IMG/VR virus record: IMGVR_UViG_3300045283_000116
Span: 1-64,000 of that record
From: a virus
Direction: 5' to 3' (one strand)
Length of the DNA stretch: 64,000 nt
Below the pieces are notes generated by a model. It searched no databases and was not told the DNA's origin. It worked only from the letters and a program-made list of their open reading frames with translations. This document shows, piece by piece, positions 1,692 through 61,645 of this stretch (within the stretch, counting starts at the first letter, position 1; every line of letters starts with the position of its first letter). Made by a program: the position numbers and the translations under genes.

Positions 1692-1928
1692 GGCCCCGTC
1701 CTACCCGCTGTGACTGGAGTCCTGACTTGCGAGCGCCGCGGCCTCGAGCCGGCTTCGAGGCCCAGCCCCAGATTGCGACCGTAGTCTGAACAACCGTTTT
1801 TGCGCAAAATGCAGGGCGGACGAACGGACTACCCCGCTTTTCAGAACTTCCTCCCCCGCGCGCGTGTAGTGTCGGCTCGCGGCGTCGCCCCAGCGCCGAG
1901 TCGGTTCCCCAATCACAAGGAGGGAAGC

Positions 1929-3446
1929 ATGAGCTTCCGTCTCGCGCTCGGAGTGAGCGTCGCTGCGATGGCCCTGGCGGTCCCCGCGGCAGCAATGGCA
2001 GTCCCAGGAGATCCCGCGATCTCCAACCCGGTGCCGGGCGTGTTCCGGCTCAACCCGCGGACCCTCGAGCCCGGCTGTTTCACGCAGCGGGCGCTGCCGG
2101 TCGATGTCGACGGCCATCTGGTCTTCGGCCTCGTCGGCATCACCCAGGAGGAGCACATCACGGTCGATGACGGCGCGCCGTTCTCGATCGACCAGGTGCT
2201 CGTCCCGTCACTGACCGACGGCTACAAGGTCTACAACGGATTCGACACCGGGACGGTCAACAACGATCCGGACATCGACCCCGGCCAGACGGCCACGGGC
2301 CTCACCAGCCCGAACGCAACCGTCGACCTCGGCGACACGATCATCTGCATCAGCGGCGACCACCGCGACATCGTGCCGATGAACAAGCCCTACAACCAGG
2401 AGGACGGCGGGCTCGTCTCCGCGAAGAACCGCCCGGTCCTGACGCCGAAGGTCGTCGGCCTGGGCGAGTCGAGCATCGACCCGCTCAACACGTTCAAGAT
2501 CGCGTTCGGCTACGACTCGACGCCGTGGTACACGCGGCCCGCGTTCGAGACCGGCGCGAACGGCAACGCGCTGTTCCCCTCGGTCACCGATCCCAACGCG
2601 TTCCCGTCCCCGACGTTCGACGGCATCCTGCCGACGTTCGTCGATCTGTTCCCGCGCAACGATCCCGGCACGTATGACGCCCAGCGCGTCAACATGGTCA
2701 AGGACGCGCGCGGCGACTTCCTGCCGTTCAACATCCCCGGTCAGGGCCAGACGTTCCTGTTCCGGGTCGGCGGGGATTCGACGGCGTGGATCGACGATGG
2801 CGGCGTTCCCGGTCCGGGCATCGGCCTGCTGACGGTCCTCAGCCGGGGCGACTTCCCGGTCTCGTGGACGCTGCGGCCGAGCCTCGCCGCCCCGTCGTCG
2901 CTGCGTAGCGTGACGTTCACGCCCGCGCAGTTCGACGCCTGGGAGCAGGGATGGCAGGACTACTACTGCGGCAAGGGTCCGCACCCGACACTCCCGCTGG
3001 CTCCTGGCACCAACAGCCCGGACCCGCGTGATTGCCCGGTCGTCATCAACCTGCCGGAGACGAAGCCGGTGGCGACGCCGAGCAACCCGACCCCGGCCCA
3101 GGTGGTCCAGGTGCCGGTGACGACGGCGACGAACACCACGACGGCGACCAACACGGTTACCAAGGTGGAGACTCCCGCCGCAGTTTCGACGGCGAAGATC
3201 CAGAAGGCGACGACGTGTCACGGCAGCCGCGTGATCCACATCGTCTGGCCGAAGTCGGCGAAGTCGGGCACGTTGCTGTTCCGCAGCAAGGTCGTCCACG
3301 CCAAGTCGAGCGGTGGCCGCCTGCGTGCGACCGCCGATCTGCGCGGCATGGTCGGTACTCCGGGTGCGTACATGAAGGTCGTCCAGTTGACGACCCTCAA
3401 GTCAGGGAAGCACCTGGCGTTCACCCGGCCGTTCAAGGTCTGCTAG
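1929..3446 (+). CDS. Secreted protein: signal peptide, Pro/Thr linker, Cys-bracketed C-terminal domain
   Basis: AAGGAGG RBS; MSFRLALGVSVAAMALAVPAAAMA; C-terminus CHGSRVIHI...ADLRG...TRPFKVC. Confidence 0.8.
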   Translation: MSFRLALGVSVAAMALAVPAAAMAVPGDPAISNPVPGVFRLNPRTLEPGCFTQRALPVDVDGHLVFGLVGITQEEHITVDDGAPFSIDQVLVPSLTDGYKVYNGFDTGTVNNDPDIDPGQTATGLTSPNATVDLGDTIICISGDHRDIVPMNKPYNQEDGGLVSAKNRPVLTPKVVGLGESSIDPLNTFKIAFGYDSTPWYTRPAFETGANGNALFPSVTDPNAFPSPTFDGILPTFVDLFPRNDPGTYDAQRVNMVKDARGDFLPFNIPGQGQTFLFRVGGDSTAWIDDGGVPGPGIGLLTVLSRGDFPVSWTLRPSLAAPSSLRSVTFTPAQFDAWEQGWQDYYCGKGPHPTLPLAPGTNSPDPRDCPVVINLPETKPVATPSNPTPAQVVQVPVTTATNTTTATNTVTKVETPAAVSTAKIQKATTCHGSRVIHIVWPKSAKSGTLLFRSKVVHAKSSGGRLRATADLRGMVGTPGAYMKVVQLTTLKSGKHLAFTRPFKVC

Positions 3447-3469
3447 CGGACGCGAGCCGTTGCAGCGAC

Positions 3470-3501
3470 ACGAGAGGCCCCGTCACGGCGGGGCCTCTCG
3501 T
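3470..3501 (+). terminator. Intrinsic terminator
   Basis: ACGAGAGGCCCCG / CGGGGCCTCTCGT 13-bp stem. Confidence 0.75.
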
Positions 3502-3533
3502 CGTTCTGCCCGCATTTTCCGGGGATACGTGGC

Positions 3534-3562
3534 TTGACATCATTTGATATCAATGAGATCGT
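3534..3562 (+). promoter_or_regulatory. Possible early promoter with operator palindrome
   Basis: TTGACA at 3534 followed by perfect palindrome TTGATATCAA 3544-3553; -10 unclear. Confidence 0.45.
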
Positions 3563-4823: not shown

Positions 4824-4987
4824 CGCGCGTGCGGAGATTCGACGTGAAGATCGGCCGCTACACGTTCCATGTGGACGCCTTCGATTGGCGCTCTGCGCAG
4901 CACGCCGCGCAGAAGCGCTACCACGACATCACCGCCGAGCGGGCACCGTTCGTGGCGAAGTCGGCAGTCAGGCGGGCGCGGCCGTGA
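4820..4987 (+). CDS. Hypothetical protein
   Basis: Coupled overlaps on both sides. Confidence 0.55.
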   Translation: MTRVRRFDVKIGRYTFHVDAFDWRSAQHAAQKRYHDITAERAPFVAKSAVRRARP

Positions 4988-5193
4988 GCTTCGTTCACCC
5001 ACGCGCGCGTGAGCGCTACGACCTTGAGGCGATCTCGGTCTGGCTGGAGGGTGCATTGCCCCCGGCCCTGGTCGGCCCGCCGACCCCGTGGGCGTACATC
5101 GCCGAACTGGAGTCCGAGGTTCGGGCTGCGCGCCTTATGCAGCTCGAGATCCTCGCCGCGACGTTGCGCGCCGTGCTGGCGGAGTGCTCGTGA
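4984..5193 (+). CDS. Hypothetical protein
   Basis: Coupled overlaps. Confidence 0.55.
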   Translation: MSFVHPRARERYDLEAISVWLEGALPPALVGPPTPWAYIAELESEVRAARLMQLEILAATLRAVLAECS

Positions 5194-6481: not shown

Positions 6482-7189
6482 ATGACCGAACTGCTCAGAC
6501 CAGAACTGACCGAGCTCCCGCCGAAGATGCGCAGGCTCCTGGTCGACAACCGCGGCTACCCGGTGCCGTGGTTCGTCACGTGGATCGACGAGAACGACAA
6601 CCCGCTGCCGGACGGCATGGGCAAGCCGGAGTTCGTGCGCGTGCTGCCGGAGAAGACGATTGAGGCGACCCGGTATCGCAAGTGCTGGGTATGCGGCGGG
6701 CAGCTTGGAGCCAACGTGGCGTTCACGATCGGCCCCATGTGCGTCGTGAACCGGATCAGCGCCGAGCCGCCCCAGCACCTTGAGTGCTCGCGCTGGTCGG
6801 CGATCAACTGCCCGTTCCTCGCGCGCCCGTACATGAAGCGCCAGGCGCTCGGCGACAAGCCGGTCGGCGAAGGGCCGGGCGTGATGATCGAGCGCAACCC
6901 CGGCGTGATCGTCGTCTGGGTCACGCGCGCGCAGTCGATGGGCTACCACGTCCACAACCACCTGCCGCTGTTCCACGTCGGCGAGCCGACGCTGGTCGAG
7001 TGGTACTCCGAGGGCCGCGAGGCCACGCGCGAGGAAGCCCAGCGCGGCATCGACACCGGCCTGCCGCTGCTGCTCGAAATGGCGGAGAAGGATGGCCCGG
7101 ACGCCGTCGCCGAGCTCGAGGCGATGACGGTCGTCGCCGAGAAGTTCCTGCCCGAGTCGAAACTAGAGTCTGCCTATGCCGGACGCTGA
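6482..7189 (+). CDS. Cys/His-rich hypothetical protein
   Basis: RGYPVPWF...CWVCG...GPMC...EPPQHLEC...CPFL. Confidence 0.75.
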   Translation: MTELLRPELTELPPKMRRLLVDNRGYPVPWFVTWIDENDNPLPDGMGKPEFVRVLPEKTIEATRYRKCWVCGGQLGANVAFTIGPMCVVNRISAEPPQHLECSRWSAINCPFLARPYMKRQALGDKPVGEGPGVMIERNPGVIVVWVTRAQSMGYHVHNHLPLFHVGEPTLVEWYSEGREATREEAQRGIDTGLPLLLEMAEKDGPDAVAELEAMTVVAEKFLPESKLESAYAGR

Positions 7190-7645: not shown

Positions 7646-7646
7646 C

Positions 7647-7925
7647 ATGCCGGACTTCGATGCGTACCGGGCGAAGCTGAACGAGCGGCTGGGGCAGCAC
7701 GCCCCGCCGTTCGTCGCCTGGGTCGACAAGCTGGAGCAGTTCTCCAACGCGCAGGACCGCAAGATCGCCGAACTGGACGACCAGATCCGCGACCAGGCCG
7801 ACAAGGACGCCACGATCAAGAGCCTCGAGGAGGAGATGGCGCTGTTGGTTGAGGACATCCTCGACGTGGATCGCGGCATCAAGACGTACGAGGAGCTCGT
7901 CGTCGACGTGCGCCGACGAGCCTAG
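7647..7925 (+). CDS. Coiled-coil protein
   Basis: Heptad pattern IAELDDQIRDQADKDATIKSLEEEM. Confidence 0.65.
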   Translation: MPDFDAYRAKLNERLGQHAPPFVAWVDKLEQFSNAQDRKIAELDDQIRDQADKDATIKSLEEEMALLVEDILDVDRGIKTYEELVVDVRRRA

Positions 7926-7936
7926 ACTGGAGTCGC

Positions 7937-8224
7937 GTGAAGCTCTTTCGCTGTGTTCTGGTGGGCGGGCCTTTCGACGGTGACGAGGGCACGATCCGCC
8001 ACAGTGACCGGCCGCAGACGATCTGGGCCGGTCACTGCAAGCCGATCAGCAAGTGCCGGGAGATCCACTGGACGCTTGACCATGTGCAGGCCGCGGACCT
8101 CGGCTATGAGCGCTACGGCTACGAGCAGACGCGCGATGACGTGCACGTGTACGTGTGCGCGGACGTGGCGTCCGGCCCCGGCGGCTCCGTCCGCGTGCTG
8201 GAGGAGATTCCGGTCAGTGGGTGA
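7937..8224 (+). CDS. Hypothetical protein
   Basis: LVGGPFDG motif common in small phage proteins. Confidence 0.65.
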   Translation: MKLFRCVLVGGPFDGDEGTIRHSDRPQTIWAGHCKPISKCREIHWTLDHVQAADLGYERYGYEQTRDDVHVYVCADVASGPGGSVRVLEEIPVSG

Positions 8225-9541: not shown

Positions 9542-9746
9542 GGCTCGCGCCCTCGAGGCGCTCCAGCTCGCTCGAGCATCCCAAGAGCGCATATTGGAAC
9601 TGGAGTCTGCACTTGAGCGCGCGAAAGTAAGTCGCGATCGGGCACTTACCGAGTGCTGCGAGATCGCAGGCGAAGAACGGACAGTGCGGGAACTCGGCCT
9701 ACACGCCAACTCCCTGCGTGCGATGGTCAAACGCGCGACATGCTGA
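9531..9746 (+). CDS. Small HTH-like protein
   Basis: RTVRELGLHANSLRAMVKRA. Confidence 0.5.
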   Translation: MTAEARALEALQLARASQERILELESALERAKVSRDRALTECCEIAGEERTVRELGLHANSLRAMVKRATC

Positions 9747-10138: not shown

Positions 10139-10175
10139 CGGATCGGTAATCTCGGACTGAAGTCGTCTGCTTTTC

Positions 10176-10484
10176 GTGCAACGATTTACGGCGATGAGGA
10201 ACTACGCGCCCATGCCCAGCCCGGAGCACATGTACGCCATCGCGGTGCGCGTCGGCGAGATCCTCGGCCGCCGTTTCGCCTACATGCACGCGCGCTGCTA
10301 CCACTTCGCGCTCGAGGACGGCTGGTCGATTTCGATTCAGGCGGAAAGTGCGGGCCGTGTCCGCGTGTCGGCCTGCCGCTGGACCCGTCCCGTCGCTACG
10401 CTGTGGGCGCGCGCCGACGACCACAACAGGCTGGCTGGCCTCGTCGTCGAGCTCGCGGGAGAAATCGACGGAGTCTTGGCATAG
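10176..10484 (+). CDS. Hypothetical protein (start uncertain)
   Basis: ORF with codon bias. Confidence 0.55.
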   Translation: MQRFTAMRNYAPMPSPEHMYAIAVRVGEILGRRFAYMHARCYHFALEDGWSISIQAESAGRVRVSACRWTRPVATLWARADDHNRLAGLVVELAGEIDGVLA

Positions 10485-11331: not shown

Positions 11332-11669
11332 GCCCGGCCGAGTGGCGGATCTACGGTCGGCGCGGAGGCTGCGTCATGTGCGGGCTCCGGCTGCCGGAGG
11401 ACCAGGACATCGACCCGAGCTTCCGACCGGAGTTGCGCAATATCGAGGTCCACCACGGCATCCGCCAGCAGGATCTCCGTCGCCGCGGTCTGGACCTCTG
11501 GGACGAGCGACTCGCCGTCTGCCTTTGCGAGTACCACCACCGCCGCCACACGAACAGGGTCCGGCGCATCATCCGCCAGGCGCTTCCGGTCGGCCTGCTG
11601 GACTACGTCGCCGAGCACGACCTCTGGCCCCAATTCGATCGGGAGTACCCCTTTGGCCTCACCACCTAA
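11328..11669 (+). CDS. HNH endonuclease (terminase-associated)
   Basis: CVMCG...EVHH...LCEYHH...H; immediately upstream of packaging genes. Confidence 0.75.
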   Translation: MSPAEWRIYGRRGGCVMCGLRLPEDQDIDPSFRPELRNIEVHHGIRQQDLRRRGLDLWDERLAVCLCEYHHRRHTNRVRRIIRQALPVGLLDYVAEHDLWPQFDREYPFGLTT

Positions 11670-12303
11670 GACTCCGCTCACCACGTCCACGCCGCCGCCG
11701 ACCGCGCCAGCGCCGCCGGTCGTCTTCCAGGTCGCGCTGCCCGGCGGCGGACGCCTCGAACTGGAGAACCAGGACGAGGTCGACATGTGGAACGACGCCA
11801 AGAAGAAGTACGAGATCGACTACGGCTTCACGCGGACCAACGACCTGATCCTGCTCGGTGCGATGTTGTCCCAGGGCATCGCCATGTACCGCGCCCAGGT
11901 GGATCTCACGTCGCCGGTCAAGGGCAAGGCGGCCACCGCGTCGACGCGTATTGCCTCCGCGGCTGGCGAGATCCGGGCGCTCGAGAAGGCGCTGGGCATC
12001 GACAAGAAAACTCGCGACTCGAGTTCCGGGCAGAACCTCGCCGAGTACCTCGCGATGCTCAAGCGCGCGGCCCACGCTCGCGGCGTTCACATCGCGGCGC
12101 GGACCAAGGCGTACGAGGAGTTCAGCATGGCGCTGCGCCAGAAGATCCGGGTGCTGCGAAACGCCGACGACGAGGACCGGCTCTACGAGGGCGTCAGCGA
12201 GGTTTCGATCATCCAGTGGGCCGAAGGTGAGCTCGCGCGACTGGAAGCGAAAGACCAGGAATGGGCTCAGGAGAAAGGCAGGGTGTTCGTCGGCCGCCTG
12301 TAG
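11653..12303 (+). CDS. Probable terminase small subunit
   Basis: Helical, IRALEKALGID motif, position between HNH and TerL. Confidence 0.55.
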   Translation: MASPPKTPLTTSTPPPTAPAPPVVFQVALPGGGRLELENQDEVDMWNDAKKKYEIDYGFTRTNDLILLGAMLSQGIAMYRAQVDLTSPVKGKAATASTRIASAAGEIRALEKALGIDKKTRDSSSGQNLAEYLAMLKRAAHARGVHIAARTKAYEEFSMALRQKIRVLRNADDEDRLYEGVSEVSIIQWAEGELARLEAKDQEWAQEKGRVFVGRL

Positions 12304-47979: not shown

Positions 47980-47990
47980 GGGCGAGCAAT

Positions 47991-49113: not shown

Positions 49114-49164
49114 GCGTCCGGTTCGGTTTGTATCCTGGGCTGAAATCACGACCCACGGAGCGAA

Positions 49165-50139: not shown

Positions 50140-50342
50140 AAGAGGTCGAGCACCACGAAGCGTCGGACGGCCGGACGTTTAGGACATTCACCGTCCCGTG
50201 TTTCCATATGGACCCGTGCTGGCAGGGGCGCTGCCAGTGCGGCGAGGCGCTGACGAAGCACGACGACACCCGCGAGATGTCCATTCGCTGCTCCCTGGAG
50301 GCGCTCAGGAAGGACCACCCGACGTGCAGACGACGGAAGTAG
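50136..50342 (+). CDS. Small Cys/His protein
   Basis: GTGA overlap; CQCG...H. Confidence 0.5.
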   Translation: MKEVEHHEASDGRTFRTFTVPCFHMDPCWQGRCQCGEALTKHDDTREMSIRCSLEALRKDHPTCRRRK

Positions 50343-50698: not shown

Positions 50699-50725
50699 TC
50701 CGACCGAAGTCGTAGCATCATCGAC

Positions 50726-51799
50726 ATGGCCGACAACTACGGGAAGCTCACCACCACCGAGCAGGGCTACTGGAACGTCTACACCCGACTTCGCCAGCTC
50801 TCGGATTGGGCAGGCTTCACGGACGGCCAGGACGACGCCAAGACCAAGTCGCGCAACTGGCTGGAGCAGCAGCGCAAGGAAATCTGGCGGCAGGCCCAGC
50901 CGAAATCCGACGGCGGTGACGGCAAGGGCTGGGACGTGAACAACCGCCGCGAGCGCTACGCGCAGTTGGCTGACGACTCCTTGAACGGCGGCTCGCCGCG
51001 GAACCTGTGCCAGCTTCCGACTGGAGGCGGAACTGCGACCGAGAAGGCCAAGATCGCCGAGCGCGAGATGTGGTGGAACCAGTCGAGCGTCGACGACGCC
51101 ACGAAGCAGTGGCGGACGAACAACTCGTCGTGGCTGACGGAGCGCCGCAAGCAGCTTTGGCATCTCATCAACGACGAGGGCGGCTCCCCGGCCTACAACC
51201 GCCAGTCGCGCTACGACGCGATGTGCGTCGCCACGAAGACCGGCGAGCCGTACGACTCGTGGGCCAAGACCCACGACGTGAACACGGGCGGCACGAAACC
51301 GAAGCCCGCTCCGGCCCCCACGCCGCCGTCGAGCCGCGAGAAGGCGGTCGAGCAGGCCCGCTCCTACCTCGGCGTTCACGAGAGCCCCGCTGGCTCCAAC
51401 CGCGGCAACCCGCAGCCGTCCGGCTGGCAGCGCCGCCTGCTCGGCTCGGACGGGTTCGCGTGGTGCGCGTGCTTTACGACCTGCATGGCCTGGGACGCGG
51501 GGGTGAAGGGCGGAAGCTCGGCCGGGGTCATCGTCATCATGTCGATGGCGCAGAGGGGCCAGGGCATGTTCAAGGGCTGGACTACCGACCCGAGTCGCGT
51601 TTTGCGGGGCGACATGGCGGTCATCGGCTGCGCGTCCTGCCACATTGGCCTGGTCGCGGACTCCAACGATCCCTATCACCTGATCGAAGGCAACACGTCC
51701 CCCGGCAGCGAAGGCAGCCAGTACGCCGGGGGCTGCGTGGCCGAGAAGCGCCGCCCGCGCGGGGCGATCATCGGCTGGGCGCTCGTCGACTACCCGTAG
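50726..51799 (+). CDS. Endolysin, C-terminal CHAP domain, N-terminal duplicated helical repeat
   Basis: ARSYLGVHE..GSN...AWCACF...HIGLV...IEGNT. Confidence 0.88.
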   Translation: MADNYGKLTTTEQGYWNVYTRLRQLSDWAGFTDGQDDAKTKSRNWLEQQRKEIWRQAQPKSDGGDGKGWDVNNRRERYAQLADDSLNGGSPRNLCQLPTGGGTATEKAKIAEREMWWNQSSVDDATKQWRTNNSSWLTERRKQLWHLINDEGGSPAYNRQSRYDAMCVATKTGEPYDSWAKTHDVNTGGTKPKPAPAPTPPSSREKAVEQARSYLGVHESPAGSNRGNPQPSGWQRRLLGSDGFAWCACFTTCMAWDAGVKGGSSAGVIVIMSMAQRGQGMFKGWTTDPSRVLRGDMAVIGCASCHIGLVADSNDPYHLIEGNTSPGSEGSQYAGGCVAEKRRPRGAIIGWALVDYP

Positions 51800-51808
51800 G
51801 AGAGACCG

Positions 51809-52069
51809 ATGACCGTAACGATGAGCGTAGCCATCTCGTTCGACGCCGACACCCCCGAGGAGGGTCAGGCGATGGTGCACGCGATGAACATCCCCGAGGG
51901 CGCGCAGGTGAACGTCAACGCGAACGTGCATCTCGTGGCGGGCGTCGTGGATGCCCGTGGCGTCGTGGCCCCCCCCGGCCCGCCCGAGCAAGTTCTCGCC
52001 GAGGCCGCGGAGGAGGCAGCAGCAGCGCTTCCTCTCGGCGAGCCAGTGCCCGTAGAGTCCGACTCATGA
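51809..52069 (+). CDS. Hypothetical protein
   Basis: AGGAG RBS. Confidence 0.55.
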   Translation: MTVTMSVAISFDADTPEEGQAMVHAMNIPEGAQVNVNANVHLVAGVVDARGVVAPPGPPEQVLAEAAEEAAAALPLGEPVPVESDS

Positions 52070-52326
52070 CCGAGCTTCCCGAGACCCCCGTCATCCAGTA
52101 CCGCGACGCGAAGACCGGCGAGTACGTTACCGCCGAGTACGCGGAGGCGAACCCCGACACGACGGTCAGCGAGACCGAGACCGGCAGCGACGACCTGCTC
52201 ATCGAGACCGGCGTCATGGAGCAAGTGCAGGCCGCGCAGGACAAGTTCGAGCACGACGAGGCCAACGAGGAAGCGATCGTCAGCAACACCGAGCCCGAGG
52301 ACGACGGGCTGCCGGACGCCGAGTAA
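52066..52326 (+). CDS. Acidic small protein
   Basis: YRDAKTGEYVTAEYAEANPDTTVSE motif; ATGA overlap. Confidence 0.65.
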   Translation: MTELPETPVIQYRDAKTGEYVTAEYAEANPDTTVSETETGSDDLLIETGVMEQVQAAQDKFEHDEANEEAIVSNTEPEDDGLPDAE

Positions 52327-52362
52327 CGGATCAACAACTCGCGACTGCGGTCGTAGCGTAGT

Positions 52363-52890
52363 GTGGCTGGCGGGATGCTCACCTTCTGGCAGCGGCTCGT
52401 CTACAACAACGCGCAGTTCCTCGCAGGGCAGTTCCGGCGCTGGGCCGACCAGCTTGACGCCGCTGCTCCGGGGCCTCCGGTGGTGGCATTCCCGATCCTG
52501 TTCATCACCGGAAAGGAAATCTCCGTGGGCCACATCACCGTGCGCGACTCGACCGCGCCGATCAAGGCGTCCGTCACGTTCAAGGACGCTGCCGGACACG
52601 ACACCGCACCCGAAGGTCTGCCGACCTGGACCTCATCCGACGAGGCGGTAGCGACCGTCGTCGCATCCGAGGACGGCCTGTCGGCCGAGGTCACCGCGGG
52701 CTCGCCGGGTGCCGCCGTCATCGAGGTCAAGGAAGTGGACAACGCCGGGCAGGAGATCGTGTCTCAGGGCACCGTCACCGTGCAGCCGGGCGACGCCGTG
52801 ATCGGCGAGATCCACTTCGAGGGCGAGGACGCTCCCGCCGTCCCGGATCAGAGCCTTCCCGGCGACCAGCCGGAGATCAACCCGCTCTAG
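52363..52890 (+). CDS. Ig-like (Big_2-type) domain protein
   Basis: PTWTSSDEAVATV...GAAVIEV...TVTV. Confidence 0.7.
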   Translation: MAGGMLTFWQRLVYNNAQFLAGQFRRWADQLDAAAPGPPVVAFPILFITGKEISVGHITVRDSTAPIKASVTFKDAAGHDTAPEGLPTWTSSDEAVATVVASEDGLSAEVTAGSPGAAVIEVKEVDNAGQEIVSQGTVTVQPGDAVIGEIHFEGEDAPAVPDQSLPGDQPEINPL

Positions 52891-52910
52891 GGCGGGCTAC
52901 GCTGACGCAG

Positions 52911-52943
52911 CAGCGGCCCGGTAGATCATCCGCCGGGCCGCTG
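52911..52943 (+). terminator. Hairpin
   Basis: CAGCGGCCCGG / CCGGGCCGCTG. Confidence 0.6.
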
Positions 52944-52947
52944 TCCT

Positions 52948-53040
52948 GTGATCGCCACCACGAACATCGCCGCGATCGCGGGACTAATCGCCGTCCTGAT
53001 CTTCGCGATCCTCGTCGCGCTCTACGCCTCCAACAAGTAG
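52948..53040 (+). CDS. 30-aa single-TM peptide (not in ORF track)
   Basis: VIATTNIAAIAGLIAVLIFAILVALYASNK. Confidence 0.5.
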   Translation: MIATTNIAAIAGLIAVLIFAILVALYASNK

Positions 53041-53041
53041 C

Positions 53042-53329
53042 TCAGGCGGCGTGGAGTTCCTCGAGGTTGCGCATCCACACGTCGAACAGCGGCTCGGTCT
53101 CCGGGTCGATCCCCCAAACACGGTGCTGGCGGCGGCGGTTCTCCCACGACGCGCGCCACATGACGTGGAACGCCTCGCGGGGAAACTCCTCGTCGGTCGG
53201 CCACGGTGCCTCCGGCGCGAGCGCCTCGGCCAATCGGCCGAGGCGCATGTTCACCTGCTGGGCCGCACCGACGCTGTCGTCGGTCGGCCAGCTTGGCGGG
53301 CTAACCCACTCAGAATCCGTGGCGGGCAT
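53042..53329 (-). CDS. Hypothetical protein
   Basis: Last gene of leftward operon; WPTDD/WPTDE repeat. Confidence 0.6.
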   Translation of the reverse strand: MPATDSEWVSPPSWPTDDSVGAAQQVNMRLGRLAEALAPEAPWPTDEEFPREAFHVMWRASWENRRRQHRVWGIDPETEPLFDVWMRNLEELHAA

Positions 53330-53756
53330 AGATGTTGTCGATCTCGGCCTCGAACTCGCCCATCGTCACCGGGCGACCGAGGCGAAGCGCCTGCTTGTCG
53401 AGGAACTTCCCGACGGCCACGTCCGCGGCGAGCCGACGCTGGACGGAGACGATGTGCGCGCCCTTGATCCGCAGCGTCACCTTGAACTCCTGGTCCGTGA
53501 TGTCCGTGTCGACCTTGCGATCCCACGTCGAGTCGCTGGAGAGCATCATGCCCCTCGCCTTGAGACGGGCACGGACCCGGCCGGTGACGAGCCGAGCGAA
53601 CTCGGTGAACATCAGCGCGGCAGGGACCGTCGACACCAGATCCCCGGCGACATCCCCGGTCGTGACCGGATGCCCCGCGGCCTCGCGGGCGTCGATGGAC
53701 GTGTCGATGGCCTGGGTCAACGGATGACCGGAACGGCGGTAGCGCTTCGACTTCAT
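53310..53756 (-). CDS. Hypothetical protein
   Basis: ATGA overlap with the HTH gene. Confidence 0.65.
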   Translation of the reverse strand: MKSKRYRRSGHPLTQAIDTSIDAREAAGHPVTTGDVAGDLVSTVPAALMFTEFARLVTGRVRARLKARGMMLSSDSTWDRKVDTDITDQEFKVTLRIKGAHIVSVQRRLAADVAVGKFLDKQALRLGRPVTMGEFEAEIDNIYARHGF

Positions 53757-54496
53757 GATGCGATCCCTTCGGCTTCGTTCGACGCCTTGGCAGCCTCGGC
53801 GGCATCAAGCTGCTCGAGAAAGAACGAGATCCGCTGACCGCACTGGATCAGCCGCTCGCGTTCCCTGTCGAACTCGCCGAGTTCGGTCAACGCCATGCGG
53901 AACCCGTGGCGCTCGTAGCGCCCGTACGCCTTCTCGATCATGTTGTAGACCGAGTCCAGCGCGGGCTCCATCGTCTCGTTGTGGATCTTGTCCGCCATCG
54001 CGCCCGGACCCATCCCGCCAAGCTGGTGGCTGGCGGCGTCGGGCGGCGGCGGCTTCTCGTTCGCCTTCCTGCGCAGATACGACTCGGTCGACGAGGCGAT
54101 ACCCACGTTGTCGAGCGCCTTCTGGCTGGATTCGGCGGTGACCGCCTGCGCGATCTCCGGGTCCTCCATCGCCTGCGCGATTTCAGTCGCAACTTCGGCG
54201 GGCTTCTCCGCGATCAGCTTCCGGGCTCCGGCCTCGATCTCAGCGGTCGTGGCATGCGACCCGCGGTCCCACGGGATCTTCAAGTCCCCCTGCGGCACCG
54301 GCTCCGCACTTGTGCGTGCGCGCACAAGCTGCTCCACCCATCGTGCGCTCCTATCGAGCCTCCGGGCAATCTCTCGCGTGCTCAGTCCCGGATCGTCCTT
54401 CTGCGCGGCGACGATCTCGTCCGCCGCCTTGAGGTAGAAGCCGTCGCCCTTGGCGATGTACCCCCTCGCCTTCTCGATGTGATCGACCTTCGTCAT
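53753..54496 (-). CDS. HTH DNA-binding protein (ParB-like HTH pattern)
   Basis: AGGAGG RBS; GLSTREIARRLDRSARWVEQLV. Confidence 0.7.
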   Translation of the reverse strand: MTKVDHIEKARGYIAKGDGFYLKAADEIVAAQKDDPGLSTREIARRLDRSARWVEQLVRARTSAEPVPQGDLKIPWDRGSHATTAEIEAGARKLIAEKPAEVATEIAQAMEDPEIAQAVTAESSQKALDNVGIASSTESYLRRKANEKPPPPDAASHQLGGMGPGAMADKIHNETMEPALDSVYNMIEKAYGRYERHGFRMALTELGEFDRERERLIQCGQRISFFLEQLDAAEAAKASNEAEGIAS

Positions 54497-54515
54497 ACGA
54501 CCTCCTGGTTCGGTT

Positions 54516-54772
54516 CGGTACATCATCCCACGAATCGGTACATCATCAACGTTCGTTACGAGCCCGCTCTCGCGAGGTCGATTAGGTTCTGGGCGACCTC
54601 GTCCAGGGCTGGCTTGCGGTAGGCCGGTGCGTGCCAGCCCTCCGGCGTCGGCTCTGGGGCGATCCCGAGTAGGAAGCGCATCCGTGCGAGTACGTAGGTC
54701 GCCTCAATCGCCTGGCTTCCGACCAGGCGATTGCCGTAGTAGGTGTCTGTCATGGCCCCACGGTACATCATC
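54516..54772. promoter_or_regulatory. Three exact 12-bp repeats CGGTACATCATC (54516, 54536, 54761)
   Basis: Each lies just upstream of a leftward start codon; inverted 2-mismatch copy near 54802. Confidence 0.75.
54556..54753 (-). CDS. Hypothetical protein
   Basis: MTDTYYGNRLVGSQAIEA... Confidence 0.5.
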   Translation of the reverse strand: MTDTYYGNRLVGSQAIEATYVLARMRFLLGIAPEPTPEGWHAPAYRKPALDEVAQNLIDLARAGS

Positions 54773-54897
54773 CGCAGACGTTCGGTCAAGATGTTCATAC
54801 TGATGGTATACCGATTGCCTCGTTCGTCGCCGGCGACTTCCGTCCGACCGGCAGGCTTTACTCCCGACTGTAAATCGAACTTCGGGAGGATGGGCTC

Positions 54898-56082
54898 GTG
54901 GAGCTCCCAGACAGCAGCATCGGCATCTCGGACATCATCGGCTGGCGCGACTGCCCGAGGCGGATGAGCTACTCCATGCGCCGCCACACCGGCAACGGAG
55001 CCCAGAGCGACGAGCGCACGCCCGAGGCTGGCTCGTGGGCCACGTGGTACGGCTCGGCGATCCACGAGGCCATCCACGCCTCGGACCAGGGGTTCGACGA
55101 CGAGGCTGCGCTACAGGCCGCGTGGGATCTGTTCGGCCGCTACCTGCGCCCGTCCGATGTCGACGCCCTGCGCGAGGATCTGGAGACCTACCATCAGCGC
55201 GACTTCCGCAACGTGCGGACCGTCATGAACGAGGAGGAGTTCCGGGTCCCACTACTAGATCACGACGGTCGTCGCATCTTCTTCCGCGGCCGCATCGACC
55301 GGCTGTACGAACGCCTGGATGCGCCGGGGCACTTCATACACATCGACTACAAGTCGAGCCGGTGGCCCAAGACGCAGGCCGACATCAACGAGGACGAGCA
55401 GCTCTGGGCCTACAACTTCGCCCTGCACGAGTGGCTGCCCGAGATGACCAGCCTGCTCCAGTTCCACGAGCAGTTGAAGTTCGGCCAGCTACACACGCGC
55501 AAGACCCCCGACCAGCGTCGCCAGATGGGCGACTGGCTGCGGCTCAACGTCGAGGCGATCCTCAACGACGACGACGTTCGCCCGGACGGGCTGCTCAAGC
55601 ACAGCAAGAACCAATGGTGCGCCTGGTGTCCCATCTTGGAGTCGTGCCCGATCGTCCCCGAGCTCACCGACTTCGCGCTGATGGAGCTCGAGCTCCTGGC
55701 CCCGACCCAGAAGATCGGACGCAAGTCTGTGCCTTTCCTGGAGCCGGACCGCATCGAGGAGTACATGGTCGAGCTTGCCCAGGCCAAGGACGCGCAGGCA
55801 ATCCTCGGCCGGTTCACCGACGCGATGAGGGATCTGATCCTCAGGATGGACGAGGTCGAGCGCGTGACCTACGGCTACAAGCTCCAGCCCCGCAAGAAGA
55901 CCACGTTCACCGGCTCGGCGATGGAGCAGCTACACGACATGCTCGGACCCGAGTTCTACGAGGTCGCCTCGGTCACGAAAACTGCACTCGAGGCCCACTT
56001 TGAGGGCGACGAGTCGGGACTCCAGTCGGCCCTGGATCTCGCCGTCGAGGAAGCCGGGGCCTCCGCCGTCGTCAAGGCGTAG
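54898..56082 (+). CDS. Cas4/RecB-like PD-(D/E)XK exonuclease
   Basis: DCPRR, GSAIHEAI, GRIDRL, IDYKS, CAWCPILESC. Confidence 0.88.
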   Translation: MELPDSSIGISDIIGWRDCPRRMSYSMRRHTGNGAQSDERTPEAGSWATWYGSAIHEAIHASDQGFDDEAALQAAWDLFGRYLRPSDVDALREDLETYHQRDFRNVRTVMNEEEFRVPLLDHDGRRIFFRGRIDRLYERLDAPGHFIHIDYKSSRWPKTQADINEDEQLWAYNFALHEWLPEMTSLLQFHEQLKFGQLHTRKTPDQRRQMGDWLRLNVEAILNDDDVRPDGLLKHSKNQWCAWCPILESCPIVPELTDFALMELELLAPTQKIGRKSVPFLEPDRIEEYMVELAQAKDAQAILGRFTDAMRDLILRMDEVERVTYGYKLQPRKKTTFTGSAMEQLHDMLGPEFYEVASVTKTALEAHFEGDESGLQSALDLAVEEAGASAVVKA

Positions 56083-56392: not shown

Positions 56393-57127
56393 ATGAAGGT
56401 CACGCTAGGTTCTGATCGGTACTTGCGGGATGTTTCTGGCCGGATCGTAGGCAAGGCCCTTGACAAGCCCGGAACGTTTGAGCTCAAGATTGGGGAAGGA
56501 ATAGAGGATGGGGTAGAGGAGGATGGGGCTCAGCTAGGGCTCGGGCTTAGCTCCGGTAGCGATGGTGCTGTAGACGTAGGTCTTACCAGCGACGTTGGTC
56601 GCGCGCGCGAGGACCGCTCAGAAAAACTTACGGCGGTCAACCGTGTCTGGGAGAGCTACTGCATCACCATGCACCCGCGGTCGACGCTGCTGGGCGAGCA
56701 GGAGCGCAAGATCATCGGCGCGGCGCTCAAGGTCGCAAGCTGGGAGGAGTGCATCCGGGCGATCATGGCCTGCGAGCGGTCCGACTTCCACATGGCGCGC
56801 GGCGAGTACCAGGGCGGCAAGCGTTACAACCGCCTGTCGCAAATCCTGAAAGGCAAGCCCGCTTCTCCGCGTGGCCCAGGGAAAACGATTCGCGAGCAAA
56901 TCGACATGTTCCTGGACCTCGCGGAAAAAGACGGACAGGAGTCAGGGGTTCCGTCCGTAGGAAATGACAACATCCGCAGGGCCAAGCGCGAGGTAATCGA
57001 CGCGACCGAGTTCCCCGGTGACGAACGGATTGTCGAACGGGGTCAGCGGGCGCGAGCGCTTCTCGCCGAAGTCGGAATCACCGTCGTGGACGTAGTCGGC
57101 GGACTCCCGACCTTCATCAACTCATGA
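56393..57127 (+). CDS. Replication initiator-like protein
   Basis: Upstream of DnaB; low-complexity purine-rich linker then VWESY...ECIRAI...SDFH...LSQIL. Confidence 0.6.
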   Translation: MKVTLGSDRYLRDVSGRIVGKALDKPGTFELKIGEGIEDGVEEDGAQLGLGLSSGSDGAVDVGLTSDVGRAREDRSEKLTAVNRVWESYCITMHPRSTLLGEQERKIIGAALKVASWEECIRAIMACERSDFHMARGEYQGGKRYNRLSQILKGKPASPRGPGKTIREQIDMFLDLAEKDGQESGVPSVGNDNIRRAKREVIDATEFPGDERIVERGQRARALLAEVGITVVDVVGGLPTFINS

Positions 57128-57531
57128 GCCTCCCAGATCGCATCGAAGCCAAGATTGACCGCAGCGGCGACTGCCATCTCTGGACGGGCTACGTCGAGAA
57201 GAACGGCTACGGAAGGGCGAAGTTCAGGGGCGAAATGTGGCTCGTTCACCGCTTGGTCTACGCCCTTGAGGTCGGCCCCATCCCGCCGGGGATGCAGATC
57301 GACCACGTCAGGACTCGAGGCTGCACTTCGCGCGCGTGCGTGAACGTCGCCCACCTGGAGGCCGTGACGCTCACGGAGAACGCCCTTCGCGCGCGAAAGA
57401 CCCACTGTCTCCGCGGCCACCCGTACGACGAGGCCAACACGTACGTCGATCCGTCGACCGGATACCGCCGCTGTCGACGCTGCCACGCCGATGCTGAGCG
57501 CGCACGCTGGACGGCACGGAGGGCGGCATGA
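57124..57531 (+). CDS. HNH endonuclease
   Basis: CHLWTG...GYG...VHRLVY...IDH...CVNVAHLE...EN; KTHCLRGHPY...RRCRRC. Confidence 0.92.
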   Translation: MSLPDRIEAKIDRSGDCHLWTGYVEKNGYGRAKFRGEMWLVHRLVYALEVGPIPPGMQIDHVRTRGCTSRACVNVAHLEAVTLTENALRARKTHCLRGHPYDEANTYVDPSTGYRRCRRCHADAERARWTARRAA

Positions 57532-58907: not shown

Positions 58908-59329
58908 TGGCTGCGAACGTGACGTGCGCGAACTGCGGGGTCGAGTTCTGGATGACCGACGGGCTTGAGCGTGCGCGTCGCCGTGACGGGTCCAGCTTCT
59001 ACTGCCCCAACGGCCACTCGCTGTCCTACGCGCCGACCGAGGACCAGAAGCAGATCAAGGAACTCGAGGGGCAACTGGAGTCCCAGCGTCGCCAGCATCG
59101 GCGGCTCATCAACGACTACAACGAGCTCTGGGCGCAGCGCGAGGAACTCGTCGCCGACCTCAAGGTCTGTCCGCTGGGCTGCGGCTATCGCTCGCGCCGC
59201 CAGGTGCCGCGCGACCCGGTGGCGATGGGCCGGGGCCTTGAGCGGGTGCGCACCGACATGGTCGACCACCTGCGCGTCGTCCACGGCGCGCGCATCCCCG
59301 CGACGAAGCTGCTGAAGGCCGGAGCGTGA
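58907..59329 (+). CDS. Zinc-finger plus coiled-coil protein
   Basis: CANCG...FYCPNGH...CPLGC...HLRVVH. Confidence 0.75.
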   Translation: MAANVTCANCGVEFWMTDGLERARRRDGSSFYCPNGHSLSYAPTEDQKQIKELEGQLESQRRQHRRLINDYNELWAQREELVADLKVCPLGCGYRSRRQVPRDPVAMGRGLERVRTDMVDHLRVVHGARIPATKLLKAGA

Positions 59330-59454: not shown

Positions 59455-59664
59455 ATGCCACGCACGAACTCAGTGCCGATCGGCGAGATCAAGACTCGCG
59501 TCGAGAAAAGGCTGCGCGTCAAGGCCAAGACCGCGGCTGAGCTCGGAGACGAGATCGGCATGTCTGGCCGCGGCGTCGGTCGCGCCCTGGGCCAGCTCGT
59601 GCGGGAGGGCCGCGCCGTCAAGGTCGCGACCCGAGTTCCTGGATACACGAAGCCGAGGCCCTGA
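59455..59664 (+). CDS. Small winged-helix protein
   Basis: KTAAELGDEIGMSGRGVGRALGQLVREG. Confidence 0.7.
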   Translation: MPRTNSVPIGEIKTRVEKRLRVKAKTAAELGDEIGMSGRGVGRALGQLVREGRAVKVATRVPGYTKPRP

Positions 59665-60224
59665 TGCTGACCACCAACCAGACCCTTCTGCTGCGCCGGA
59701 TCGCCAACGCGCCCGAGCCAATCTCGGTCGAGGCGCTGTCGTCCGTTCGCAATGAGCACGACGACGAGATGGGGGAGAACGCCGTTCGCTCGTCGACGAA
59801 GCGCATGGAGAAGAACGGCTGGGTCACGGGCTCAGGCATCGGGAGACTGCGCTCCTACGCGATCACGGCCGTCGGAGTGGCCGCCCTTCAGGACCCGACA
59901 GCTTCGGACTCCAGTCTCGACAATGGGGACCAGGGTGCACCAGCTCCGCCTGGACTCGAGCTGGATGCTTCCCCGGCCTCCAGTCGCAACTACGTGGTGC
60001 TGGAGGAGGTCATGGTCGGCGAGCTCGAGCTGGATGAGCAGGCCGCGGTGTACGTCGTGGTCGAAACCACCGCGGCCCGCAACGTCGAAGCCGCCCTGCG
60101 CCACGCCGCCAAGGCGAACTTCGAGGACGGCATCCCGAGACTGGTCGCCGTGTCCGAGAAGATGTGGCAGGTGACCCCGGTGGAGGTCAAGACCGCGAGG
60201 TCGGTGAGCATCGGTGGAGGGTGA
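59664..60224 (+). CDS. Winged-helix (PadR/MarR-like) protein with C-terminal domain
   Basis: ENAVRSSTKRMEKNGWV...YAITAVG. Confidence 0.7.
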   Translation: MLTTNQTLLLRRIANAPEPISVEALSSVRNEHDDEMGENAVRSSTKRMEKNGWVTGSGIGRLRSYAITAVGVAALQDPTASDSSLDNGDQGAPAPPGLELDASPASSRNYVVLEEVMVGELELDEQAAVYVVVETTAARNVEAALRHAAKANFEDGIPRLVAVSEKMWQVTPVEVKTARSVSIGGG

Positions 60225-60465
60225 CCTGTTCCGCGCGCACGACGACGCCGTGAGCCGAGCTCGCGAGTTCGACGGCGACTGGATCGGGCGACTCAAGGCT
60301 TTCGGTCTGGACCCGGCCGAGGTCGAGGAGGTCATCGTGGCTCGCTGGGAGGACTTCAAGACGGTGCGGCAGGAGGGCGTCATCACGGAGGACTTCGTGC
60401 TGTTCGCCGCGGGCTTTGCCGAGGGCCTCGTTGCTGGCGTGGCGTTCGGTGAACGTGAACACTGA
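60214..60465 (+). CDS. Hypothetical protein
   Basis: Overlapping chain. Confidence 0.55.
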   Translation: MEGDLFRAHDDAVSRAREFDGDWIGRLKAFGLDPAEVEEVIVARWEDFKTVRQEGVITEDFVLFAAGFAEGLVAGVAFGEREH

Positions 60466-61123
60466 ACTGTTCGCCTACGAGGCGTGGCCTCCCCGTTCGA
60501 TCTGGGGCGAGCACGCGGCGCAGGGTCAGAACCCGTACGACACCGTCGACTTCCACGTCGACCTGGGCTGCGGAACCTTGCCGAAGGGTCGGATTGGAGT
60601 CGACCGCTACCGCGCGCCGGGCGTCAACGTCCTCGCCGACCTGGATGCGGTCCTGACGTACGCGGTTCCAGTGGTGCCTGGTGGCGAGGCGGGACCGGGG
60701 GCCGTGCCTGGCCCCGGACTCCCGTTCGCGGATAGCTCGATCCGGTCGATCATCTCCCACCACGCGCTCGAACACATCGGGGACGGGTTCCTCACGCTCA
60801 TGGAGGAAATCCATCGGGTGCTGGTACCGGGCGGTTTGCTGCGGGTCATCACGCCCGCGTTCCCCTCCTGGGCAGCGGTCGGTGACCCCGACCACCGTCG
60901 CTACTTCATGGCCGATCCGTCGACGGGCGCGTCGACGTGGGACGCTTTCTTCGTCGACGGCAACGGCCACTCGTGGCTTTCGGAGTTCTCCGTCCCCTAC
61001 ATCGGCACGGCGAAGTTCATGCGACTCGAGTTGGACGTGACCCCGACGCCCCCCCTGGAACTGCAATGGACGGCCGAGGACAGACGAGAGATGCGTATCG
61101 CTATGGCGGCCTGGAAGCCCTGA
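60455..61123 (+). CDS. Class I SAM-dependent methyltransferase
   Basis: VDLGCG, IGVD, LPFADSS, HALEHI, MEEIHRVLVPGG, DPDH. Confidence 0.88.
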   Translation: MNTELFAYEAWPPRSIWGEHAAQGQNPYDTVDFHVDLGCGTLPKGRIGVDRYRAPGVNVLADLDAVLTYAVPVVPGGEAGPGAVPGPGLPFADSSIRSIISHHALEHIGDGFLTLMEEIHRVLVPGGLLRVITPAFPSWAAVGDPDHRRYFMADPSTGASTWDAFFVDGNGHSWLSEFSVPYIGTAKFMRLELDVTPTPPLELQWTAEDRREMRIAMAAWKP

Positions 61124-61219
61124 GCCATCACTTCGATCCGTCCTACGCTTGGCCGGTCGGTTCTCGCGTCTGCGTTTGCGGTCGCCATGAAGATCATTCG
61201 ATCCACCTAAAATCACTGC

Positions 61220-61645
61220 ATGGCACCACTACCGACACGCCGAATCACAGCCACGTCCTGCGAGGTCATCACGACCGGGCTGGGCAAGAACAACAGGGAG
61301 TACACGATCTACGAGATCGCGGCCCGCGGTGAGGACGGGCTCGAGATCACCGAGAACCTGCGGTCGTTCGAGAAACTGCCGTTGGACGTACTCATCGAGG
61401 TCGAGGTCGAGTCGTTCAGCAGCGACCGCCACGGGCACTCGTACACGCTCAAGCTGCCGCGCAACTCGGAACACAAGGCCGAGAATCAGTCGGGCTCCGG
61501 GCTGTTGGAGCTCATCCGCACCCAGCTCACCGAGCTCCGCACCGAGCTCGAGCTCCTGAAGCCCCAGGTCCGCCAACTCAGGACTCAAGTCGCAGAGTTA
61601 CGGGGCGAAGAAGCGCCCCGAGACGAGACCGAGGTCATCCTGTGA
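61220..61645 (+). CDS. Possible OB-fold protein with coiled coil
   Basis: TGLGKNNREYTIYEI beta pattern; C-terminal heptads. Confidence 0.5.
   Translation: MAPLPTRRITATSCEVITTGLGKNNREYTIYEIAARGEDGLEITENLRSFEKLPLDVLIEVEVESFSSDRHGHSYTLKLPRNSEHKAENQSGSGLLELIRTQLTELRTELELLKPQVRQLRTQVAELRGEEAPRDETEVIL

Follow-up and report, generated by a model that had tools for sequence, protein, structure and literature searches.

Does the word GACT-NN-AGTC, which recurs across the genome of an uncultured soil phage, mark binding sites for a protein, and if so, what could read it? The phage is an 84,692-bp virus record (G000) and the window analysed here is its first 64 kb, with a G+C content of 67.1%. A total of nineteen copies of GACTNNAGTC were found in the window, where dinucleotide-preserving shuffles gave a mean of 1.13 and five at the largest. 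Thirteen of them have a GG or CC centre and the remaining six have other centres. All nineteen starts listed in the original prediction match GACTNNAGTC exactly and its one-mismatch copies (5105, 9598, 12584, 23677, 48712, 50637, 59073 and 63401) are all present; its by-eye estimate of the G+C content was about 68%. The full 84.7-kb record holds 29 copies of GACTNNAGTC, and relaxing the outer base to RACT-NN-AGTY gives 43 sites in the whole record against about 2.4 expected. Among the 8-mers of the genome none is more strongly over-represented than the core ACTGGAGT, which has 27 occurrences (both strands summed) against 1.5 under a third-order Markov model.

The geometry of the site is narrow. 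When spacers of 0 to 12 nt were tested between the GACT and AGTC arms, only the 2-nt spacer was enriched (29 vs 1.3 expected), and the enriched arrangement is that of inverted arms only. The arms are invariant but the centre is not, as GA, CA, CG and CT centres also occur. Weaker symmetric positions were found further out, namely (counting from the centre) A at -12, G at -10 and a pyrimidine at -8, the last present in 48 and the A in 25 of 54 flank half-sites. The full site is a dyad of about 24-26 bp, made up of the core RACT-NN-AGTY and these weaker outer positions. The earlier suggestion that the flanks extend the dyad holds only in part. The systematic component comprises two bases at a distance of 3 nt from the 10-mer, a pyrimidine before it and a purine after it, and an A 7 nt outside it.

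The same GACT and AGTC arms occur in the C-boxes of R-M controller proteins (C.PvuII and C.AhdI type), which have the form GACT-N3-AGTC and are recognised by small HTH proteins acting as dimers. The C-box was rejected as an identity for the dyad, as the spacer is 2 nt and not 3 (the N3 form occurs 3 times vs 1.5 expected) and no DNA methyltransferase, restriction enzyme or HTH_3 C protein was found among the approximately 70 predicted proteins searched. The sole methyltransferase-domain match (60431-61123) lies in a glycosylation cluster, adjoining glycosyltransferase genes, and has homologues in two relatives, G001 and G002. C-boxes also form one or two operators, whereas about 40 dispersed sites are found here.

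Within the whole record, 33 of the 43 RACT-NN-AGTY sites lie in genes, at all relative positions, and site spacing is only marginally more even than random (P ~0.06). Intergenic copies in the window include GACTGGAGTC at 1712-1721, followed by a third half-site (AGTCctGACT), and the variant AACTGGAGTC at 9598-9607. Another GACTGGAGTC copy (7925-7934) lies between genes 7647-7925 and 7937-8224, where its GGAG may also act as a ribosome-binding site. The variant GACTGGAGTT at 12584-12593 is preceded by a third half-site and lies 12 nt before the terminase start, and GACTCTAGTC at 16342-16351 is intergenic, 13 nt before a late-promoter-like element, GTCGTAGATTAGG. This last element is separate from the dyad and does have start-associated placement; for the dyad itself a start-associated sequence of the Cluster K type was rejected, as most copies are within genes. 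An activator box of the T4 MotA-box type was also rejected, since no offset from -45 to +49 has TAnnnT in three or more of the 43 sites.

Copies of GACTGGAGTC within genes were found at 23067-23076 (gene 22933-23391), 35076-35085 (gene 33220-35616), 44495-44504 (glycosyltransferase gene 44112-45185), 46774-46783 (gene 45182-46933, which also holds GACTGAAGTC at 46639-46648) and 48256-48265 (close to the start of gene 48230-48616). Three more (39748-39757, 40648-40657 and 41284-41293) are each located in a collagen-like tract; they sit in repeated tracts of one gene and are not independent of each other, a caution that had already been raised. GACTCCAGTC occurs in a 2110-aa fibre gene (37999-38008), in a PD-(D/E)XK nuclease gene (56018-56027, preceded by a third half-site) and within the winged-helix gene 59664-60224 (59907-59916). 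GACTCGAGTC is found in a 1673-aa ORF (27762-32783), a putative tape-measure by size and position, at 28157-28166, and again at 49431-49440, where a third half-site precedes it (AGTCgaGACT). The other copies in the window are GACTCAAGTC at 61582-61591, AACTGGAGTC at 5105-5114 (in gene 4984-5193) and 59073-59082, AACTAGAGTC at 7161-7170 (in gene 6482-7189), GACTCGAGTT at 12016-12025 (in gene 11653-12303) and 61023-61032, the near-copy CACTGGAGTC at 23677-23686, and GACTGGAGTT at 48712-48721, 50637-50646 and 63401-63410. The last of these is preceded by a third half-site and has an 18-mer, CAAGTCACGACTGGAGTT, in common with position 12576.

Are these words a by-product of the encoded proteins? 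Genes contain 23 copies of GACTNNAGTC and 15 of GACTSSAGTC, while a within-gene synonymous codon shuffle, in which amino acids and codon usage were kept, gave about 0.5 and 0.3 respectively. As the excess survives this codon-preserving shuffle, the test named in the original prediction, selection acts on the DNA word itself. ACT-GGA-GTC spells 9 of the 20 Thr-Gly-Val tripeptides where codon usage predicts 0.06. Of the 13 GG/CC-centred copies inside genes, 11 lie in one codon phase, as do both CG-centred copies, and the phase favoured by the in-gene dyads is the one that fixes the fewest residues. Dyads were created wherever the protein is at or near Thr-x-Val, either through the rare codons ACT NNA GTC or through conservative residue changes. 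The copy at 23067, for instance, reads ctG ACT GGA GTC, and the copy at 35076 encodes LTGV where relatives have LTGI. Since dyads are made wherever the protein allows, selection acts on how many sites there are, or how densely they lie, and not on fixed places.

Comparison with a sister phage (83-84% nucleotide identity) shows an equal dyad density. Five copies were found in 16.9 kb of its DNA; the sites turn over while the density is kept. The copy at 23067 is retained in the sister, those at 23677 and 28157 are not, and at the 12584 site the sister has GACTCCAGTC, in which the centre has changed from GG to CC with the arms unchanged. This flip before the terminase start counts against an RNA-level word, in which an internal Shine-Dalgarno-like GGAG would pause or start translation or form a start-associated sequence. 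Such a word would fit the GGAG at the dyad centre, the location of copies 7925 and 12584 at 3-12 nt before start codons, and the sense-strand preference for GG (about 18) over CC (about 6). However, the arms are the invariant part and the centre the variable one, most sites lie inside genes at all relative positions, and a distant relative, G407, favours a CA/TG centre without GGAG. The GG bias may instead reflect glycine being tolerated better than proline in T-x-V (20 TGV and 13 TPV tripeptides in this genome), and we give the RNA-level reading almost no credence.

The dyad is unevenly distributed in the family. RACTNNAGTY occurs 42 times in G407, 27 times in G410 and 4 times in 12 kb of G418, all of them distant lineages, and G408 carries a variant dyad, CAACTSSAGTTG, ten times. 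Four other complete or near-complete relatives have one (G001), five (G002), one (G409) and zero (G417) copies. The word thus differs by lineage (GACT, AACT or CAAC) and several relatives are without it. The outer flank positions of the dyad recur in G407 and G410, and core and outer flank stay nearly the same between lineages with just 58% identity in their capsid proteins. This near-constancy, a dyad distribution matched by no phage gene and the patchy occurrence in the family favour a host protein as the binder, which would be recruited or titrated by about 40 sites per genome copy, with sites lost in hosts that do not have it. G417, which has accessory genes of G407 and G410 but no sites, points the same way. 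We give this possibility a fairly low probability, as the host is hinted at only by a capsid-gene relative, found on a 6-kb contig that was binned in an Actinomycetota MAG, and we know of no host regulator with a GACT-NN-AGTC dyad site. In 401 sampled Actinomycetota genomes the dyad was nowhere enriched, its density reaching at most about 8 per Mb against 224 per Mb in the phage, although such counts would miss a small regulon and the sample may not include the phage's own host.

The lack of enrichment in these 401 genomes also weighs, within that sample, against mimicry of a signal on the host's chromosome, such as a Chi-like, KOPS-like or uptake sequence, for which a high density that depends little on position would be typical. 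Chi and KOPS are also polar, unlike the symmetric dyad. Spread of the word by a small mobile insertion is the companion proposal, but gains and losses between relatives occurred by point substitution and not by insertions or indels, and we regard either origin as highly improbable.

Which phage protein, then, might read the dyad? Among the phage proteins that carry a recognised DNA-binding domain, none is present and absent in step with it, and the RHH, wHTH and HTH (53753-54496) proteins put forward in the original prediction could not be linked to it. The HTH gene, located in the immunity region, is flanked by a separate repeat, GGTACATCATC, in three copies and is without a homologue in the other dyad-bearing phages. 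A Pfam search of the approximately 70 predicted proteins found no MatP, SlmA or ParB/Noc domain.

A 96-aa ORF on the plus strand (10194-10484, here gpX) has an alpha-beta5-alpha fold and no family match. GACTGAAGTC at 10155-10164 lies 30 nt upstream of it, and a dyad is found 30-40 nt upstream of the gpX start in four lineages (this phage with its sister, G407, G410 and G418). This upstream dyad, present in every lineage with both dyads and the gene, is probably regulatory, unlike the other sites. Among the genomes and loci compared, gpX occurs only in dyad-bearing phages and in G417, where the gene is intact, dyads number zero and the upstream site is broken. The 149 metagenome homologues of gpX are uncharacterised, its fold is a generic alpha/beta sandwich (best Z 7.3, a value within the stated noise range), and it matched none of the recognised DNA-binding folds. 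We regard gpX as a weak candidate for the dyad binder. It is doubtful that the dyads form a lattice read for genome-wide silencing or compaction by a gpX of unrecognised fold, which would control its own gene by way of the conserved upstream dyad, or else a sponge that titrates a host regulator during phage replication.

Other genes of the phage include a tyrosine integrase, a leftward HTH cassette, Ku, HNH_3 (57124-57531) and an ATP-dependent ligase. The phage looks temperate, judging lysogeny from the integrase alone. Only HNH_3, the ligase and a muralytic gene are common to dyad-rich G407 and absent from G001, G002, G408, G409 and G410, and this sharing, with the presence of Ku, favours a reading of the dyads as enzyme targets. 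They would serve either a dimeric nuclease or nickase (HNH_3), with nicks sealed by the phage ligase on the model of phages with site-specific single-strand interruptions, or a sequence-specific DNA modification. Dimeric HNH enzymes reading short palindromes do exist. We nevertheless consider enzyme targets improbable: G410 has 27 sites and neither HNH_3 nor ligase, the HNH gene of G407 adjoins the terminase gene, the usual place of a packaging helper, HNH_3 genes are sporadic and of homing type, and selecting for one's own cleavage sites brings no clear benefit. Modification has against it the methyltransferase search described above, whose sole match has homologues in dyad-poor phages.

With moderate confidence, we favour the reading that the approximately 40 genome-wide dyads are putative docking sites at which a single sequence-specific protein, symmetric (homodimeric) in form, binds the DNA. 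The restriction to the 2-nt spacer, the symmetric flank, the centre flip, selection at synonymous sites and turnover at constant density argue, at the level of sequence, for this part of the original prediction, that of dispersed sites for a dimeric protein. The half-site centres are 6 bp apart, which is tight for a classical HTH dimer. The dyads appear to lie in transcription units in either orientation, at no set distance from promoters or start codons. The bound protein most plausibly works in dispersed fashion, as a roadblock, a silencer or a genome-marking factor, as proposed for stoperators and the Cluster O 17-bp repeats; action as a classical promoter operator would be less plausible. 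The binder would come either from the host or from the phage, in the latter case as a protein not linkable between lineages by BLAST and HMM comparison.

Short palindromes that are dispersed in coding DNA, mark a replicon for binding by a dimeric protein and serve organisation rather than promoters are known as matS (MatP), SBS (SlmA) and NBS (Noc). These differ from the dyad in belonging to bacterial chromosomes and in sequence, and to our knowledge there is no example of such a chromosome-marking system in a phage. The analogies first drawn, to matS and to stoperators, both fail on sequence and symmetry. Cluster A stoperators (L5 gp71) would share with the present sites their dozens of copies across early and late operons, a temperate actinophage and silencing by an elongation block. 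According to PMC4351075, they are 13-mers without symmetry that follow the direction of transcription, and an immunity repressor binds them as a monomer. A stoperator was rejected here because the dyad form is symmetric, because genes of one direction contain the centre in both orientations and because the sister phage has a flipped centre. The HTH gene of the immunity region has its own, different repeat.

A similar architecture is found in Cluster O mycobacteriophages, whose 17-bp dyad repeat, TGTTCGGNNNCCGAACA (TGTTCGG-N3-CCGAACA), occurs 34 times in Corndog, is predicted to be bound by a dimer and has an unexplained function (PMC4351075, PMC6439249). Both repeats have invariant inverted arms around a variable but biased centre, at least 30 copies across a 70-85-kb high-GC genome, and many copies in genes. 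Neither is tied to promoters or start codons, and neither follows a rule of orientation. Corndog encodes Ku and virion glycosylation genes, as the present phage has Ku and glycosyltransferases. Corndog's glycosyltransferases are mentioned in PMC4351075. Corndog infects an actinobacterium. About three quarters of the dyads of the present phage are in genes compared with about one third of the Cluster O repeats. The word of the present family also varies and is missing from several relatives, unlike that of Cluster O. Relatedness between this phage and the Cluster O phages was not detectable: its nucleotide sequence had no match among deposited phages, and its capsid protein found one distant record as the sole match in the phage collection. 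Membership of the Cluster O repeat is ruled out by the different word and spacer. The dispersed dyad is a feature known from Cluster O mycobacteriophages, to which this phage adds a different word in an uncultured family.

A total of 29 copies of the dyad GACT-NN-AGTC (GACTNNAGTC) were found in the whole phage record (G000; 84,692 bp, 67.2% G+C, CheckV completeness 97%), whose first 64 kb form the window. Seventeen of them have a GG/CC centre, two a CG centre and ten another centre. All nineteen positions listed in the original prediction were exact matches, against an expectation for the window of 1.13 and a maximum of 5 in dinucleotide-preserving shuffles. Allowing a relaxed outer base (RACT-NN-AGTY) raises the count to 43 sites (about 2.4 expected under a first-order Markov model), and the dyad core, ACTGGAGT, is the record's most over-represented 8-mer (27 vs 1.5).

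The codon tests were based on 128 genes called with a codon-usage model, and synonymous codons were permuted inside each gene so that the proteins and the per-gene codon usage were preserved. The original prediction had named such a shuffle as the one that could account for the counts, but it did not reproduce them: 23 in-gene copies of GACTNNAGTC were observed and about 0.5 remained after shuffling, while in-gene GACTSSAGTC fell from 15 to about 0.3. The rare spelling ACT-GGA-GTC that had been noted by eye was borne out, as nine of the twenty Thr-Gly-Val strings are so spelled against 0.06 expected, Thr being encoded by ACT in 5% of cases and Gly by GGA in 11%. The spelling ACT-NNA-GTC is also frequent at T-E-V, T-R-V, T-Q-V and T-P-V, so that the non-GG centres are due to amino-acid constraints. 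Eleven of the thirteen in-gene GG/CC-centred dyads and both CG-centred ones share the codon phase xxG-ACT-GGA-GTC, which constrains just three small residues; the other phases require Trp or a four-residue string. A uniform codon register was not seen in the relatives with a crude GC3 method. On the sense strand GG centres are commoner than CC, an excess that can be explained by glycine being tolerated better than proline and by an occasional GGAG serving as ribosome-binding site. The orthologues of distant relatives read LTGI, ETRM, LTER and others at the places of the dyads, which therefore arise opportunistically via synonymous and conservative changes. Selection targets the DNA word and not the peptide.

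When GACT and AGTC were compared in inverted, everted and direct order with spacers of 0-12, GACT-N2-AGTC alone stood out (29 vs 1.3). AGTC-N2-GACT shows a slight excess (8 vs 1.2) because six places have an additional, third half-site in step with the 6-bp period. When the flanks were symmetrised, 48 of the 54 half-sites had a pyrimidine 3 nt beyond the 10-mer and 25 had an A 7 nt beyond it, and the conserved flank positions include rare third-position T and A. Given these symmetric preferences, the whole dyad spans about 24-26 bp. Because no hairpin can form from a stem of 4 bp closed by a loop of 2 nt, the symmetry points to recognition as double-stranded DNA by a protein with two-fold symmetry; a reading at the RNA level is less likely. 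We consider it reasonably probable that the dyads are scattered binding sites of a symmetric protein that recognises DNA sequence-specifically, and that they are maintained by selection for site number. An 18-mer combining a third half-site with a dyad variant, CAAGTCACGACTGGAGTT, occurs twice in the window (12576-12593 and 63393-63410), one copy preceding the terminase gene and the other lying within the gene at 63226-64017.

Ten of the 43 dyads are not wholly intragenic, where about three would be expected from the 7% non-coding fraction, and the remaining ones are found anywhere along their genes, whatever the functional class of the gene. No constant distance to TAnnnT was found for the 43 sites, so a fixed -10 partner was rejected. 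The evenness of spacing is marginal for 29 sites (P about 0.06) and not significant for 43.

Two other repeated words were observed. GTCGTAGATTAGG lies on the '+' strand at window positions 16363, 18961, 21948, 24595 and 47970, directly preceding portal, protease, post-capsid, tail and lysis-region genes, and the form CGTAnATTAGG occupies equivalent places in relatives with 4-9 copies each. This element looks like a family-wide single-element late promoter or start-associated sequence; each of the copies at 21948 and 24595 is joined to a one-mismatch dyad (GTCTGGAGTC and GCCTCCAGTC), and this is kept in the sister phage. CCGG-N5-CCGG (54 vs 9.4 expected in the genome; window 39000-42100) is probably a side effect of the collagen-like Gly-X-Y tracts (GGT CCG GCC GGG) of a 2110-aa fibre gene, tracts for which metagenome contigs contain many alternative joints. 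A glycosyltransferase gene is found downstream of the fibre gene (44112-45185), and a cluster at window 60431-64000, continuing to 65084 and mostly kept in relatives, encodes a methyltransferase-domain protein, two GT2 and one GT4 glycosyltransferases; together they suggest virion glycosylation.

No close deposited phage was found for G000. The sister phage, two contigs from another sample with 83-84% nucleotide identity, has five dyads in 16.9 kb, which is the density of G000. The dyads at 23067 and 10155 are kept exactly, those at 28157 and 23677 are missing, and two sister-phage dyads align with near-misses in G000. At 12584 the arms are kept and the centre is flipped (sister GACTCCAGTC vs G000 GACTGGAGTT). 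Every one of these differences is a substitution; a mobile insertion is a less probable reading of the dyad.

The more distant family members (capsid protein 54-67% identical, CGTAnATTAGG element in common) form two groups by the dyad. The relaxed form, predominantly GG/CC-centred in G000, occurs 42 times in G407 (85.8 kb; centre predominantly CA/TG), 27 times in G410 (82 kb, L085-L089; arms predominantly AACT/AGTT or mixed), four times in the 12.4-kb fragment G418, and twelve times in G408 (L076-L080), which also carries ten copies of CAACTSSAGTTG in equivalent register. The re-spelled arms of G410 comprise nine AACT-NN-AGTT and sixteen mixed G/A forms. There are five copies in G002, one each in G001 and G409, and none in G417; in five more records of the family, of which three measure 64-79 kb, GACTNNAGTC occurs 0-2 times. 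G001 has a different word, ATCT-N6-AGAT, 11 times against 1.3 expected. The outer flank (A at -12, G at -10 and C/T at -8 from the centre) is common to G000, G407, G410 and G408 and therefore favours a single recognition system that has changed slightly from lineage to lineage.

The original prediction had pointed to related phages and candidate host chromosomes as the places to count the motif; counts were high in some relatives, but the 401 sampled Actinomycetota genomes were not enriched. None of these has more than 24 copies of GACTSSAGTC, about 8 per Mb or less, which resembles a reversed-pattern control; the phage has 224 per Mb. The 401 include fifteen genomes flagged as unpublished (G126, G007, G180, G397, G232, G054, G245, G024, G342, G154, G088, G274, G324, G349 and G094), and the lack of enrichment rests partly on these. 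Among the 401 sampled, the dyad is not a word of host chromosomes, and a host signal is among the less likely readings. The sole clue to the host comes from an Actinomycetota MAG, in which a binned contig of 6 kb carries a relative of the capsid gene. A full-text literature search for the word returned primers only. All sequencing runs carrying this phage, as contigs, are soil metagenomes. In four of these runs many contigs match window 35000-54999 without difference and few differ, and none of the few differences listed falls on a dyad; the four carry different study codes and may be one campaign.

No gene matched the dyad distribution perfectly when all G000 proteins were profiled against seven full-length relatives, and no DNA-binding family tracked the dyad among about 70 predicted proteins searched with Pfam, PHROGs and NCBIfam. 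A serious sub-case is that the binder is host-encoded and is recruited or titrated by the phage, which would account both for the patchy distribution of the dyad and for the absence of any phage gene that matches it. Two proteins are common to G000, G407, G410 and G417 only, namely a zinc-ribbon/DGSFPI protein adjoining the protease gene (18548-18964) and a 96-aa ORF (10194-10484). The only ORF present in G407 and G410 yet missing from G417 encodes an 85-aa protein without family matches. The two HTH/winged-helix candidates had no relatives on viral contigs. The leftward HTH gene (53753-54496) lies among its own repeat and is more likely a conventional local regulator; this repeat, GGTACATCATC, occurs three times exactly (54517, 54537 and 54762) and nine times with at most one mismatch (0.44 expected), flanks the HTH gene and the leftward gene 54556-54798, probably supplies an immunity-like cassette with its operators or promoters, and is distinct from the dyad.

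A scenario in which the dyads are nicked and sealed is possible but weak, and other enzyme-target readings are likewise less likely. An HNH_3 protein (57124-57531) and an ATP-dependent ligase are common only to the dyad-rich G000 and G407, as is a muralytic gene; all three are lacking in G410. The HNH_3 endonuclease gene is free-standing and directly upstream of dnaB; its homologue, found in G407 only among the relatives, adjoins the terminase gene. The ligase and a Ku homologue lie beyond the window on the minus strand (G000 72186-74456; L005:8186-10456), 4 nt apart with only an overlapping 98-aa ORF (73327-73623) between them and a RuvB-like ATPase upstream; G001 and G002 contain no homologue of the ligase or of Ku. 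They are an NHEJ-type pair, as also found in mycobacteriophages Corndog and Omega.

Upstream of the 96-aa ORF a dyad is found 30-40 nt from the start codon in G000, the sister phage, G407, G410 and G418, following directly on the stop of the preceding gene. The ORF has 149 metagenome homologues, all of about 90-105 aa and uncharacterised, falls in unnamed clusters only in the protein atlas and has no match in Pfam, PHROGs or NCBIfam. Its confident structure model (pLDDT 91.5) is an alpha-beta5-alpha sandwich for which Foldseek returned nothing at E <=0.001; the best VIA-align scores (Z 7.3, type III secretion chaperones and frataxin) and that for the T4 MotA C-terminal domain (Z 5.4, rmsd 6.2) are within the stated noise range. 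G417 retains the ORF intact with zero dyads, its upstream site being disrupted by a 3-nt gap, so it is safer to regard the ORF as a gene that the dyad-binding protein would control than as that protein itself.

Returning to the array of protein-binding sites, G000 encodes a tyrosine integrase, Ku, ligase and the leftward HTH cassette, and every transcription unit contains dyads, which occur in either orientation. Given this, the most economical reading would be that the predicted bound protein acts as a roadblock, silencer or genome mark. Dyad repeats throughout an actinophage genome, partly intragenic, are a published kind, being described in 2015 for Cluster O mycobacteriophages; to our knowledge neither a function nor a binder is known for these. 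A roadblock or silencing-type role has been proposed for stoperators and the Cluster O 17-bp repeats (PMC4351075). New here are the quantitative proof of synonymous-site selection with one preferred codon phase, the same 24-26-bp architecture seen family-wide, with its arms re-spelled and with the dyad wholly lost in close relatives, and a single conserved dyad upstream of a small uncharacterised gene.

The family provides a natural comparison set, with about 40 sites, re-spelled arms (GACT, AACT, CAAC) or none in close relatives, and this together with the conserved site upstream of the small gene makes the question experimentally approachable. If true, a lattice for silencing, compaction or titration would be a general, overlooked layer of phage genome organisation.
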